DNA of 64,000 bases from Escherichia phage vB_EcoM_SA21RB, in sequence record OL960580, one strand, 5' to 3'. The notes under the pieces are model-generated. The model did no database searches and was not told where the DNA came from. It saw only the letters and a program-made list of their open reading frames with translations. Below are positions 1 to 64,000 of this stretch, piece by piece (within the stretch, counting starts at the first letter, position 1; each line of letters opens with the position of its first letter). A program made the position numbers and the translations under genes.

Positions 1-11
1 AATTTTCCTTA

Positions 12-2189
12 TTAGGCCGCAAGGGCCTTCATAGTTTTAGCGATTTGGGAAACTTCATCATCACTTAAAGAGTTGCGATAACCGATGAAGTCGGAAACAA
101 TACGGAATTTCTTGGTAAACTCAGCAACCATTTTATCACTATTTTTTGAAGCATTACGTGATAATTCATCAAAGAGATTAGTTACTGTCCAGATATCATG
201 ACCGATGGTACCTTTTCCACCGTTGAAATATATGCCCTGCAATGAACTAACCATATTACCAAGGCGAGTATATTCTTCAGAAACTTCATCTACACTGAAG
301 TACTTCATCATAAAATCGAGTTCAGGATACTTAATAATTTTATCAATATATCGTTTAGCTGAACTTGAATAACCTACATACTTATCATAATCTACAGCAT
401 CAAAAGCATCTACATATAAATCACGCAGAGTTTCAAAAATACATTGGCACTGACCAAGTTCTTTTACCTTTTTCTGTAAAAGTGGACGAATAACATAAAA
501 TTCATTAATGCCAATAAGATTAGCCATACGAGTCAAAATACTCGTAGATGGATGACAAAGCGATGTAGTACCATCCATAGAGAAAATATCAGAACGATGC
601 ATATACGCTACATAACCAGTAATTTCATCTGCTTCTGACGTAAGTGTAAACAGTTCCTCTTTTTCCCAGCGCCCGTCTTTAATTTCAAACTTAAACGCAG
701 TAGCAGCTTTAGGACGAGGAGCTTTACTTTTAACTGCCTTCGGAATATAACTTTTAACTAAAGCTTCAATTTCTGACAAATAATGAATGTTAACTTCATC
801 ACTTTCAAACATTGCCATAATATCAGGGAGTAAATCAATCTGCGATTCTACTTCCGGATTAATAAACAGAAGACGCTCATTATGATGAATATTCAAAGTG
901 TTGTTAAATTCTTTATCATCTAACGCATGTGCTAATCCACGGACAATATTAACACGATTTTTAATATTATCAATAACGATATTAATTTTTGTTGTATTAA
1001 TACCGAACAGACGATAACTTGATGCAACGGCTGAAGTTTCATGGCTTTGCTTAATGCGTTTCAGTCGAGGGTCAAGATTTACTTCATACACAACTCCTGC
1101 ATTGCATAGTTTACTATCAGGTTCAAACATGCTTTGCATCTTCTTATATGACAGATTTTTAGTCGTGAATTTGACTGAATTACTAATCATATAATCTCGA
1201 GCAGAATATCCCATCTTCATCAATTCACGGTATGTATGACGAGGAGATGTAGATTCTTTAAATCGTTTTACATCTTCATTGAATGCCTTTTCACTAAGCT
1301 CTTTAACACGCTCAATAATATTTTTACGAGTACGATCATCTAGTGAAAGAGCTTCGCGTGATGGAGCAATATCAAGTGAACCCATTGGAAACTTAATGTA
1401 ATTCACTTCATTGCGGATGCTTAACCAGTTACGGTCTCTAATAACACCATCAATAGGATAAACAATACCACCATAGATAGCATACAATCCACCACGATCT
1501 GGCCAGTATCTTTCTGGATTTACGCCGTAATAGTCATCAAAATCCGGAAAATAATCAATTTCGCGGTCAAGACCATTAATGATAGCCAAATCTTTGAATG
1601 GCCGCATGATATAAGAAACTTCATAAGCAAAGTTTCTAAAGTCTTTTTCTTCAACTGGAACTACGATTTCAATACCAGTTTTATCATTTGGACCCATTTC
1701 TTTTACGAATGTAGGTTTAATCTGCGGACCGTCACCATCCATGTAAGCTACATAACCACGAATTTCGCCTTTATGATATGAAGTAATACTAAATGTATCA
1801 GTATAACTAAACGGAGATTTAGAACCTAAACCAAATCCGCCAATGAAATCGTTAGATTCAGCCTTAGATGAACTGAAGTATGAATTATACAACCCAGGAG
1901 AATTATCATCACCTTGAATATCAAAATCGCTCATACCCGGACCAAAATCTCGGCAAACAAATCGCGGATCTAATCGTCCTGGAACTTGAATGATAAATTT
2001 TTCAGGATTTCCATTGAGAGCATGGGCATCAATCATGTTGGTAATCAATTCACGGACTACTGCGCGAATCTTGTTTGTATACAAATCAGATGATAGAATT
2101 TTAAATACTTTAGGATTTGCTGCGATGCTAAATGCCTTTGATTTAGAACCATTACCAAGAATTGTTTCTTTTTCAGTGGTGATAATCAT
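12..2189 (-). CDS. rIIA: RIIA protein (membrane-associated, rapid-lysis / Rex-exclusion locus)
   Basis: 725-aa ORF with ATG start; N-terminus [20 protein letters not shown] and length match my memory of T4 RIIA; GHKL-ATPase-like N-terminal region. Confidence 0.93.
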
Positions 2190-2199
2190 AATTTCCTCA

Positions 2200-2403
2200 T
2201 TAATTCATATTGCGTTTAATAACTTCAGCAACTTCTAGTAGTTCATCTTTAGTTGCGGTGTCGGATTGAATTTTATCTCTAATATCCTTAAAGCGGTTTT
2301 TAAACTCTTCGGCTTCTCCCATATCGAAAAAGCGTTGAATGATTCTATATTCTCGATGAACTGCTTTATCAAAAAGTTCTAAATTTACTTTATATGATTT
2401 CAT
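2200..2403 (-). CDS. small hypothetical protein (position of T4 rIIA.1)
   Basis: 67-aa ORF with ATG start, tightly packed between rIIA and gene 39; early promoter just upstream. Confidence 0.6.
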
Positions 2404-2427
2404 TTCAATATCCTCATTTGCCCAATT

Positions 2428-2457
2428 AATTATACCACATCCTTGTGGTAAAGTAAA
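2428..2457 (-). promoter_or_regulatory. T4-type early promoter for the rIIA.1-rIIA unit
   Basis: minus strand reads GTTTAC (-35), about 18 nt, TATAAT (-10); sits between the gene 39 stop and the rIIA.1 start. Confidence 0.55.
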
Positions 2458-62944: not shown

Positions 62945-62985
62945 ATGTTTCCTTTAAATGTAAATAGGTCTGAGTATTAGCTTTA

Positions 62986-63567
62986 TTAAGAATTACCACG
63001 GGCTGCATTAGCAACGGCGTAAGCGTACTGAACATTAGCGTCTTTAAACGTACCTTTAGAGGTATCTAGTTCTGCCTTAAAGCCGCCTTTAGTCATAACC
63101 TCGGCGAATTCTTTACGGAAAGCCATTGCATCAAGGCTTCTCCATGATGATTTGTGCTTGGCGAATTCAAGACCAGCGTAGTTGACAGCCTTAGCTAATT
63201 TATTATCAATAACCCATTTACCAGATTTAGGCACAAACACCGGGCCTTTCTGTTTAGAGAATAGTTTTAAATTCCAGCGACGAAGGTCACCGTCAGCTTT
63301 AACAAAAGCTGCGTCCAAGTTACTAGCAACAACATCTTGAATATGACCAAATTTAAGCCCATCAACTTCAATATTTAAATCGGTACGCCAGCGAAGTCCT
63401 TCCCAAGCGAAGGCTTTAAAGTCGGAAGCCTTTGTAGCTAAGTACCGTTCAATAGGAGCTGTTTTAGGGTCAAAGCCGTTTCCCGATCGGTAGGTCCACT
63501 CATCTTTATTAATGCCTTTGGCCTTTACTACAGAAGCTTCGGCAATAAATTCTTGATAGGTTTTCAT
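62986..63567 (-). CDS. ipIII: internal protein III
   Basis: 193 aa starting MKTYQEFIAEA; length matches T4 IPIII; directly upstream of e. Confidence 0.7.
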   Translation of the reverse strand: MKTYQEFIAEASVVKAKGINKDEWTYRSGNGFDPKTAPIERYLATKASDFKAFAWEGLRWRTDLNIEVDGLKFGHIQDVVASNLDAAFVKADGDLRRWNLKLFSKQKGPVFVPKSGKWVIDNKLAKAVNYAGLEFAKHKSSWRSLDAMAFRKEFAEVMTKGGFKAELDTSKGTFKDANVQYAYAVANAARGNS

Positions 63568-63627
63568 GTGTATCCTTTAAATGTAATTATTTTAATTAAT
63601 AATTTATCTCTTCAAGTAACTGTGAAT

Positions 63628-63657
63628 ATACTATCACAATTCCAAGAGAAAGTAAAC
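63628..63657 (-). promoter_or_regulatory. T4-type early promoter for the internal protein genes
   Basis: minus strand GTTTAC, 18 nt, TAGTAT between e and ipIII. Confidence 0.5.
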
Positions 63658-63661
63658 GGCT

Positions 63662-64000
63662 TTATAGATTTTTATACGCGTCCCAAGTGCCAGTTCTAAA
63701 CGTTGCAATGACTCGTTTTGCGCGATTAGGTGTTTGATTATACCATCTACTTTTAGCTAAGTTAACTGCTGCTTCATCCCAGCGTTTTTGTTGAAGCATA
63801 CGCAAAGAGTTAGTAAATCCTGCCACACCGGTTTCTCCCATTTGGAAAACCATGTTAATCAATGCACAGCGCCGAACAGCATCAAGAGAATCATAAACTG
63901 GTTTTAATTTAGCATTTCTCAGAATTCCGCGAACAGCAGCATCAACATCCTGATTAAAAAGTTTTTCAGCCTCATCTTTTGTAATTACACCATTGCAATT
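63662..64000 (-). CDS. e: lysozyme (endolysin), 3' portion; N-terminus lies beyond the window
   Basis: C-terminus ...[61 protein letters not shown] matches T4 lysozyme. Confidence 0.92.

Follow-up and report, generated by a model that had tools for sequence, protein, structure and literature searches.

Gene content of the early region

The window analysed here, a 64-kb stretch of Escherichia phage vB_EcoM_SA21RB (OL960580), comprises the early region of a Tequatrovirus from rIIA to e, with its early and middle genes all lying on the minus strand, and keeps the T4 gene order. It begins at the T4-reference coordinate, with rIIA in the same position, so that T4 numbering applies. Blastn against the T4 genome (NC_000866) returned every HSP in the same order and on the same strand (56.7 kb aligned, 94% identity), and tblastn with T4 proteins matched 103 of 116 in the window, again in T4 order, confirming the initial annotation, which had described the core genes as collinear with those of T4. 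Breaks in the blastn alignment coincided exactly with T4 cassette boundaries. Of the 13 T4 genes unmatched by tblastn, seven encode homing endonucleases, the full T4 complement for this interval; besides these, denV, dam, b-gt, 49.3 and tk.1 had no counterpart. The main features are as follows.

12..2189, minus strand: rIIA (725 aa), 97% aa identity to T4 rIIA
2458..4275, minus strand: gene 39, uninterrupted topoisomerase II large subunit of 605 aa (equivalent to T4 gp39 + gp60), 99.7% aa identity to T2; GyrB/HATPase/Toprim Pfam domains
2794..2857, minus strand: 64-bp in-frame stretch in place of T4 2794-3910 (bypass gap, 60.1, mobA, gp39 C-terminal tail), delimited by blastn break points
15614..15871, minus strand: soc, small outer capsid protein, 87% aa identity to T4 Soc
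15888..16288, minus strand: soc.1 (15888..16097) and soc.2 (16094..16288) at the T4 segF site, 98.6% and 96.9% aa identity to the T2 ORFs
16288..16806, minus strand: gene 56 dCTPase, a third mosaic allele, 72-74% aa identity to T4, T2 and T6
16807..17074, unstranded: 56|61 junction lacking a dam methyltransferase gene; no dam match, T4 16826-17724 and T2 15203-16619 without counterpart
23151..23993, minus strand: ba-gt, beta-glucosyl-HMC-alpha-glucosyltransferase, replacing T4 segA and b-gt; phrog_842 (E 1.5e-89), Pfam TAGT
35381..36583, minus strand: a-gt, alpha-glucosyltransferase, 91.5% aa identity to T4 a-gt
40919..41389, minus strand: nrdG, with a 4-bp overlap into nrdD; mobC and seg-like genes absent from this junction
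41386..43203, minus strand: nrdD, intron-free anaerobic ribonucleotide reductase of 605 aa, 99.3% identity to spliced T4 NrdD
53603..54588, minus strand: ORF of a 153-aa membrane-protein family and 173-aa y05I/mobD.1-like ORF at the T4 mobD site, 100% and 97% aa identity to T6
57111..57692, minus strand: tk, thymidine kinase, end of the nrdC-tk interval, 99.5% aa identity to T4
61778..62365, minus strand: vs.8 (tblastn), with the internal-protein genes directly next to it and no denV
62471..62944, minus strand: 157-aa internal virion protein ('Ip4' type), replacing T4 denV and ipII; phrog_3155 (E 6e-102), DUF7412, 100% aa identity to T2
62986..63567, minus strand: ipIII, internal protein III of T4 type, 92.7% aa identity to T4; unmatched in the T2 and T6 records
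63662..64000, minus strand: e (lysozyme), C-terminal part, cut at the window end, 98% aa identity to T4 e residues 53-164

Among the genes found in the window are 42, 56 and those for the glucosyltransferases. Diverged alleles relative to T4 include gp56 (74% aa identity), NrdC.3 (62%) and Tk.4 (58%). A tRNA scan of the window found none, as expected given that the T-even tRNA cluster is situated beyond gene e, and an Rfam scan of the whole window returned no family at gathering score.

Sites of T4 insertions and their occupants

Gene 39 is, as the initial annotation had read it, a single ORF devoid of the gene 60 bypass and of mobA (605 aa from its ATG, 606 aa from an upstream GTG). Its product matches T4 gp39 over residues 1-473 and, beyond that, gp60 over residues 27-160, and at the exact nucleotide junction the coding strand runs GAT GGT CTA GGG AGC, with a gapless take-off region (GGT CTA GGG), the T4 counterpart being GGA-UAG plus a 50-nt gap. 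Reading of the sequence revealed no 50-nt coding gap in the gene, and neither 60.1 nor mobA was matched by tblastn. The 120 nt around the 64-bp stretch contain 4 mismatches to T2; the T4 bypass cassette is present in only 43 phage records. The topoisomerase large subunit would be made as one polypeptide, with no ribosomal bypass.

The reading of nrdD as a continuous 605-aa ORF with no group I intron likewise held. Homology to T4 breaks exactly at T4 44814|45848, i.e. the 1033-nt intron, and the join matches the T4 exon boundaries, the T4 insertion site mapping to 42665|42666. With Rfam, Intron_gpI was unmatched in the window (T4 control, 105 bits), and tblastn over the window gave no match to I-TevII. 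The nrdD intron occurs in 27 phage records; here, NrdD would be produced without splicing. A special I-TevII-resistant nrdD junction was considered and rejected, as the six synonymous differences from T4 that lie just 3′ of the site are also present in T2 and T6. Since both of these phages carry the identical cluster, it is a common intron-less allele and not peculiar to vB_EcoM_SA21RB.

Searches for homing endonucleases across the window were negative throughout. By tblastn, segF, segA, mobA, mobB, mobC, mobD and I-TevII were all unmatched; phmmer/HMM searches of the six-frame translation, with 13 endonuclease proteins of T4, T2 and T6 as queries, reached only E = 0.03 at best, and a six-frame catalytic-motif regex search for Seg/Mob endonucleases was negative. 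Pfam was rejected as the only detector, having yielded nothing for T4 SegF and a sub-threshold HNH match for MobD, and PHROGs with positive controls were used (Seg family, phrog_314; Mob family, phrog_655). The T4, T2 and T6 endonucleases scored E 1e-23 to 1e-56 in these controls, and the 20 window ORFs lacking a close T4 counterpart all fell outside the endonuclease families. Free-standing Seg (GIY-YIG) or Mob (HNH) endonucleases were not found in the window, which bears out the earlier statement that no such ORFs are evident in the soc-56 or nrdC-tk intervals, and every T4 endonuclease-gene or intron site in the interval is in the 'empty' state. That some small uncharacterised ORF instead encodes an endonuclease of the homing type from a family not yet recognised, in which case the region would not be endonuclease-free, we consider very unlikely. 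ORFs of no known function do lie exactly at T4 endonuclease sites (53603..54064, 44623..45011 and 25534..25881), and phage endonucleases are poorly detected by Pfam, which missed T4 SegF entirely. However, the candidate ORFs are all 60-173 aa long and their PHROG families are membrane protein, y05I-like, antitoxin or unknown; moreover, every tested T4/T2/T6 Seg/Mob protein was detected in the PHROG controls, and the six-frame HMM searches remained negative.

The soc.1 and soc.2 products belong to families (DUF7422/phrog_5773 and phrog_5782) that are not endonuclease families. A gp56 protein identical to that encoded next to them was found in 84 blocks of a public collection, and public contigs with this identical gp56 carry flanking islands in varied combinations. 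At the adjoining junction, Dam of T4 and of T2 as queries were unmatched within this 64-kb window of a ~167-kb genome. Two 61.2 (AdfA) genes stand in tandem, one of T2 type and one of T4/T6 type, and the region 16250-19600, within which the dam-less junction lies, is covered to at least 80% in one place in 389 phage records. A plus-strand 66-aa ORF (16878..17078) was dismissed as a novelty, being conserved in T2 and T6, with another frame offset in T4.

Replacement also marks the glucosylation genes. The ba-gt product is 97.9% identical to that of T2 and 97.2% to that of T6 at the aa level, and neither segA nor b-gt had a tblastn match over the window. The mobB site just upstream of a-gt (about 36575-36598) is empty, T4 37818-38678 having no counterpart. 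With a-gt and ba-gt present and b-gt absent, the glucosylation gene set is of the T2/T6 type. The enzymatic role of ba-gt in T6 is documented (PMC11078745). From gene content, the DNA is predicted to bear hmC in alpha-glucosyl and gentiobiosyl form, and both beta-glucosyl-hmC and Dam N6-methyladenine are predicted to be absent.

At the mobD site, mobD itself was unmatched, and the two resident ORFs belong to phrog_944/phrog_22816 and phrog_1502 (Pfam T4_y05I_N/C). Four further ORFs (25534..25881, 38156..38425, 40274..40585 and 52273..52473) are missing from T4, T2 and T6 alike. Toward the window end, the gene order is vs.8, the 157-aa internal protein, ipIII and e, the 157-aa protein being of a type annotated as ipIV/Ip4 in phages PST and Shfl2. 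A denV query gave no tblastn match, its best phmmer hit (E 0.007) falling on gp49 and representing noise, and the vs.8-to-ipIII interval holds the 157-aa internal protein alone, in agreement with the claim that no denV-like ORF lies by the internal-protein genes. denV is present in 67 phage records. UV sensitivity is predicted to be T2-like.

Relationship to T4, T2, T6 and public records

Over the 64-kb window, identity × coverage amounted to 83.4% for T4 (NC_000866.4), 88.9% for T2 (AP018813.1) and 85.2% for T6 (AP018814.1), the aligned parts being collinear with, and 94-95% identical to, all three. ICTV unites phages in a genus at about 70% or more nucleotide identity and in a species at 95% or more over the genome length. 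With its collinear T4-type early region and 83-89% identity × coverage to T4/T2/T6, the phage belongs to the genus Tequatrovirus; judged over 64 of ~167 kb, it lies outside the species Tequatrovirus T4 and equally outside those of T2 and T6. Near-identity to T4, which the initial annotation had named as the outcome contradicting it, was not found by BLASTN, and with thirteen T4 genes missing, its placement of the phage outside T4 sensu stricto is upheld.

In line with the shared gene order and numbering origin, the core replication proteins are 95-100% identical to those of T4, and ipIII and a full-length 61.2 are common to both. The window lacks, relative to T4, the 60.1/mobA/bypass cassette, segF, dam, segA, b-gt, mobB, mobC, the nrdD intron with I-TevII, 49.3, mobD, tk.1, denV and ipII. 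T2 is the closest classical T-even, being collinear and 95.2% identical over 59.8 kb. It shares with the window the fused 605-aa gp39, an intron-free nrdD with the same exon-junction sequence, soc.1/soc.2, ba-gt, the lack of denV, the identical 157-aa internal protein and the same 118-aa AdfA-like ORF. In contrast, T2 has dam with a neighbouring 181-aa ORF, tk.1 and a mob-like endonuclease gene between 46 and 46.1, all lacking from the window, as well as a ModA/B-like ORF between nrdC.10 and nrdC.11, whereas the window has ipIII, full-length 61.2 and extra motB paralogues that T2 lacks. With T6, the fused gp39, intron-free nrdD, soc.1/soc.2, ba-gt, the dam-less 56|61 junction, the absence of denV and the ORFs at the mobD site are held in common. 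T6 differs by three endonuclease genes in the interval (46|46.1, nrdG|nrdD and nrdC.9|nrdC.10), of which the one between nrdG and nrdD is seg-like (phrog_314), and by the lack of everything between regB and e (vs.3-vs.8, Ip4, ipIII), which the window possesses. All three reference phages carry tk.1, unlike the window. The label 'T2/T6-like' given to the accessory content captures that, where T4 differs, mostly the T2/T6 alternatives are present; it is nevertheless imprecise and serves as no clade label here.

Among public records, the best match varies by segment (ime09/PP01, 96.6%; SH-1/REP4, about 97%; Shfl2, 96.6%); among the matches listed, none reaches 99% over a segment, none is best throughout and the best overall stand at 96-97%. 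About 480 records cover at least 80% of window positions 25001-50000 at 95-99% identity, compared with only 43 that carry the T4 bypass cassette, 27 the nrdD intron and 67 denV. The change of best record from segment to segment marks the phage as a mosaic. Its best matches form the ime09/PP01/wV7/RB51/Shfl2/ECML-134 group, and it combines islands from different records: the motB-paralogue block is common with ime09, PP01 and RB51, the dam-less 56|61 junction with tandem AdfA-like genes is as in wV7, and the Ip4+ipIII pair as in ECML-134, PST and Shfl2.

Could the window simply derive from one of the classical phages, or from several by error? T4 itself, or a laboratory deletion derivative stripped of endonuclease genes, would account for the identical gene order and start coordinate and for the many proteins 98-100% identical to those of T4. 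Yet its probability is practically negligible, given only 94% nucleotide identity in the aligned parts, the replacement (by ba-gt, soc.1/2, Ip4 and a y05I-like gene) rather than simple deletion of the missing segments, and the distance of the gp56, NrdC.3 and Tk.4 alleles. Scarcely more credible, as judged against the AP018813 and AP018814 records, is an identity with T2 or T6 proper: the fused gene 39, intron-free nrdD, ba-gt, soc.1/2 and missing denV, as well as an Ip4 fully identical to that of T2, speak for it, but the identity × coverage values, the T2 and T6 genes lacking from the window, the ipIII and vs.3-vs.8 block missing from T6 and the four ORFs found in none of T4/T2/T6 all stand against it. 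An assembly chimera of co-occurring T-even phages might make the best-matching record switch between the three searched segments. We regard this, too, as highly improbable: mosaicism of this kind is normal for Tequatroviruses, no reading frame is broken at the junctions, identity to T2/T4/T6 stays at about 91-98% in most core bins, with few divergent ones around 6, 22, 46 and 58 kb, and, of the accessory regions tested, two occur collinearly as single pieces in numerous independent records, 16250-19600 in the 389 mentioned above and 5500-9800 in, for instance, ime09 at 100% coverage. The vs.8-Ip4-ipIII-e region is collinear in only 13 records. With a probability of roughly 93%, the window represents the first 64 kb of a Tequatrovirus other than T4, T2 or T6, a mosaic relative of the ime09/PP01/wV7/RB51/Shfl2 type, a species reading made from 64 of ~167 kb.

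Proposed role of mobile elements and modular exchange

The initial annotation further held that a position outside T4 explains the differing accessory islands. The islands do differ; the statement is descriptive, not causal. Established T-even biology suggests that the differences were caused by endonuclease and intron mobility plus modular recombination. Mobile endonuclease cassettes may have accumulated in T4 to an unusual extent, gain in T4 rather than loss here being the direction that we propose, and T-evens infecting the same cell would swap short accessory modules when their conserved core genes undergo homologous recombination. If this phage and T4 infected a host together, T4 endonucleases would be expected to target the empty sites in 39 and nrdD, and possibly also those in 56 and uvsX, leading to local marker exclusion.

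Two further ideas, taken jointly, appear unlikely: that homing endonuclease genes might be wholly lacking because the phage actively resists endonuclease-driven marker exclusion, not through mere non-exposure, and that the tandem T2-type and T4-type AdfA (61.2) could provide broadened anti-DarT counter-defence. The sequence patterns that might favour them are circumstantial and common to T2, T6 and hundreds of phages. Diverged alleles flank T4 endonuclease sites (gp56, 72-74%; NrdG, 80%; UvsX, 90%), a pattern compatible with resistance, as is the cluster of synonymous changes beside the nrdD intron site.

The insertion-free state is that of the majority among Tequatroviruses, T4 being the exception (PMC2988022). 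The lack of T4 selfish insertions in the window is the usual state of T4's close relatives and is known biology, so its relevance is mainly one of correct classification, with little beyond. For phage therapy and defence screens, the predicted gentiobiosyl-hmC DNA would bear on glycosylase and type IV restriction defences, and gene content also predicts the absence of Dam methylation and of DenV repair; these are predictions, not new biology. Among its relatives, it is T4 whose split gene 39/60, nrdD intron and dense endonuclease load are the exceptions.

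Layout of the window and alignment to T4, T2 and T6

Nearly all substantial ORFs of the window are carried on the minus strand. The position of rIIA (12..2189) is identical to that in the T4 reference, and the window therefore covers the opening 64 kb of a genome whose numbering follows the T4 convention. Its 3′ limit falls within gene e, and no tRNA genes were found in the 64 kb, as expected given that the tRNA cluster is located past e. The matching regions of NC_000866 (T4), AP018813 (T2) and AP018814 (T6) were aligned locally to the window and gave collinear HSPs throughout.

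Local alignment of the three reference genomes to the window
T4: aligned-base identity 94.2%; aligned length 56.7 kb; identity × coverage 83.4%
T2: aligned-base identity 95.2%; aligned length 59.8 kb; identity × coverage 88.9%
T6: aligned-base identity 94.0%; aligned length 58.0 kb; identity × coverage 85.2%

Across most core genes the three phages are about equidistant from the window; what distinguishes them is coverage, i.e. the accessory islands. In line with the collinearity with T4 noted initially, tblastn with 116 T4 proteins recovered 103 in T4 order. No match in the window was obtained for 60.1, mobA, segF, dam, segA, b-gt, mobB, mobC, I-TevII, 49.3, mobD, tk.1 or denV, and the sole match to T4 ipII was a different internal protein (33%). 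Within surroundings otherwise 95-100% conserved, nrdC.3 (45816-46745; 62% aa identity to T4) and the macro-domain gene tk.4 (58440-58919; 58%) were unusually divergent. NrdG (80%), Pin (82%) and UvsX (90%) were likewise below average, and all flank T4 endonuclease sites.

In a megablast search of ~50,000 phage records, ~480 Tequatrovirus records covered at least 80% of each window segment at 95-99% identity, and none of those listed matched any segment at 99% or above. The top record changed between the three segments, from ime09/PP01 (1-25 kb; 96.6%) via SH-1/REP4/ECO07P2 (25-50 kb; ~97%) to Shfl2/T4_ev240 (50-64 kb; ~96.7%).

Gene 39, nrdD and the endonuclease sites

2458..4275, gene 39, single 605-aa ORF, 99.7% identical to the T2 protein
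41386..43203, nrdD, 605-aa ORF, 99.3% identical to spliced T4 NrdD

Both genes had been described as continuous ORFs, the former devoid of the gene 60 bypass and mobA and the latter of the group I intron, and both descriptions held. Window gp39 aligns with residues 1-473 of T4 gp39 and then with residues 27-160 of gp60. Where T4 reads GAT GGA TAG, followed by a 50-nt gap and GGA TTA GGT, the window reads uninterrupted through GAT GGT CTA GGG AGC. Here, 64 bp of the window stand in place of T4 2794-3910, and the junction differs from that of T2 at 4 of 120 nt. The mobA gene and the bypass element have been described as a mobile cassette (bioRxiv 10.1101/2022.08.31.505936). At nrdD, the alignment to T4 is interrupted precisely at 44814|45848 (T4 coordinates), corresponding to the 1033-nt intron; Rfam, which scored the T4 group I intron at 105 bits, detected none in the window, and downstream of the exon junction the window is identical to the intron-less T2/T6 allele.

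Pfam proved a weak endonuclease detector, leaving T4 SegF unmatched and giving MobD only a sub-threshold HNH hit, and the test was therefore based on PHROGs with positive controls. These assigned T4 SegF and SegA to phrog_314 and MobB, MobC and MobD to phrog_655 (E 1e-23 to 1e-56), and also flagged as homing endonucleases extra ORFs of T6 (46|46.1, nrdG|nrdD and nrdC.9|nrdC.10) and T2 (46|46.1). None of the 20 window ORFs without a close T4 counterpart gave a hit to either family or to the Pfam models for HNH and GIY-YIG domains. All 947 segments of 30 aa or more between stop codons in the six frames were also searched with 13 Seg/Mob proteins, two small HMMs, a regular expression for GIY-YIG and five further T4/T2 proteins, Dam and DenV among them; no endonuclease match better than E = 0.03 emerged. 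Thus, the lack of recognisable endonuclease genes, initially remarked for the soc-56 and nrdC-tk intervals, extends to all 64 kb, and every T4 endonuclease and intron site within the interval is empty.

Replacements at T4 island sites and limits of the T2/T6-like label

15888..16288, soc.1/soc.2 at the T4 segF site, closest to T2 (97-99%)
16288-16806, gene 56 (dCTPase), 72-74% aa identity to T4, T2 and T6
18272-18628, minus strand, 118-aa T2-type ORF of the AdfA (gp61.2, anti-DarT factor) family, its Pfam match confined to the C-terminal part
18630-19271, minus strand, full-length T4/T6-type AdfA ORF, 77% identical to T4 61.2
23151..23993, ba-gt (beta-glucosyl-HMC-alpha-glucosyltransferase) at the T4 segA and b-gt site, phrog_842 (E 1.5e-89), 98% to T2 and 97% to T6
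53603..54588, membrane-protein and y05I-like ORFs at the T4 mobD site, closest to T6 (100% and 97%)
61778..62365, vs.8
62471..62944, 157-aa internal protein (N-terminus MKTYQEFITEA) at the T4 denV and ipII site, phrog_3155, named Ip4/ipIV in Shfl2 and PST, 100% identical to T2
62986..63567, ipIII, T4-type

The glucosylation genes of the window are a-gt and ba-gt. At its end the order is vs.8, Ip4, ipIII, e, with no denV between vs.8 and the internal-protein genes, as originally stated, or elsewhere in the window. This arrangement, which pairs T2-identical Ip4 with T4-type ipIII (62471-63567), was collinear in only 13 phage records, T4_ev240 being the best (99.2%).

The characterization as T2/T6-like applies to soc.1/2, ba-gt, the mobD-site ORFs and Ip4, but is too simple as regards dam, ipIII, tk.1, the tandem AdfA genes and the endonucleases. 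The dam gene, a point left unmentioned initially, is absent between genes 56 and 61 (16807-17074), as in the T6 record and unlike in T4 and T2. Conversely, ipIII is shared with T4 and missing from T2 and T6, whereas tk.1, present in all three, is lacking. Of the two AdfA-like genes, which the window carries in tandem, the short one alone occurs in T2 and the long one alone in T4 and T6; public contigs hold one gene of either type, or both. The window also lacks the endonuclease genes particular to T2 and T6. Several small ORFs with PHROG families elsewhere (25534..25881, 38156..38425, 40274..40585 and 52273..52473) are missing from T4, T2 and T6 alike. Judged by its sequence, gene 56 is a third allele, apparently a mosaic of a T4-like N-terminus and a T2-like C-terminal part, which makes SegF sensitivity unpredictable. 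Identical gp56 occurs in 84 collection blocks with varied neighbours, and public contigs with this allele differ in how they combine dam, soc.1/2 and a single or double AdfA-like gene, showing that the islands assort independently.

Several further local features were observed. T4 49.3 is replaced by two small minus-strand ORFs of 69 and 71 aa (44623-45011), the first matching phrog_3402 (E 1.6e-39), a family with the annotation 'antitoxin from a toxin-antitoxin system', and weakly, below threshold, the Pfam model of the T7 gp5.9 RecBCD inhibitor. Three consecutive MotB-family ORFs of 139, 158 and 180 aa (6188-7712, minus strand) occupy the place of T4 motB and motB.1, as also in ime09, PP01 and RB51-type phages. 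Only one ORF on the plus strand was noticed to have a strong ribosome-binding site (AAGGAGG). Located at 16878-17078, directly upstream of gene 61, it encodes a 66-aa hydrophobic protein and is shared by T2 and T6 in conserved form; T4 apparently has it too, unannotated in the RefSeq record. Between nrdC.10 and nrdC.11, T2 has an extra 161-aa ORF (1789-2274 of the T2 record piece L005) that the window lacks, a paralogue of the ADP-ribosyltransferases ModA/ModB (phmmer E 1e-11 to window ModB). The GenBank functional names of T2 and T6 used here are mostly spurious, e.g. 'tail sheath protein' for nrdC.8.

Distribution and predicted consequences

Beside ~480 close relatives of the window, the T4 60.1/mobA/bypass cassette was found in 43 phage records, the nrdD intron in 27 and denV in 67. 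Region 16250-19600, with the dam-less 56|61 junction and tandem AdfA-like genes, was at least 80% covered in one place in 389 records. The initial observation is confirmed, and its interpretation supported, with qualification where 'T2/T6-like' is too simple.

On the basis of established T-even biology, the phage would make its topoisomerase large subunit without bypass and NrdD without splicing. Its DNA would bear alpha-glucosyl- and gentiobiosyl-hmC and be free of beta-glucosyl-hmC and Dam 6mA; the role of ba-gt is documented in T6 (PMC11078745). UV sensitivity would be T2-like, and in co-infection with T4 the phage would be a recipient in endonuclease-driven gene conversion. The organisation of the window is the usual one for a non-T4 Tequatrovirus and represents biology already known.
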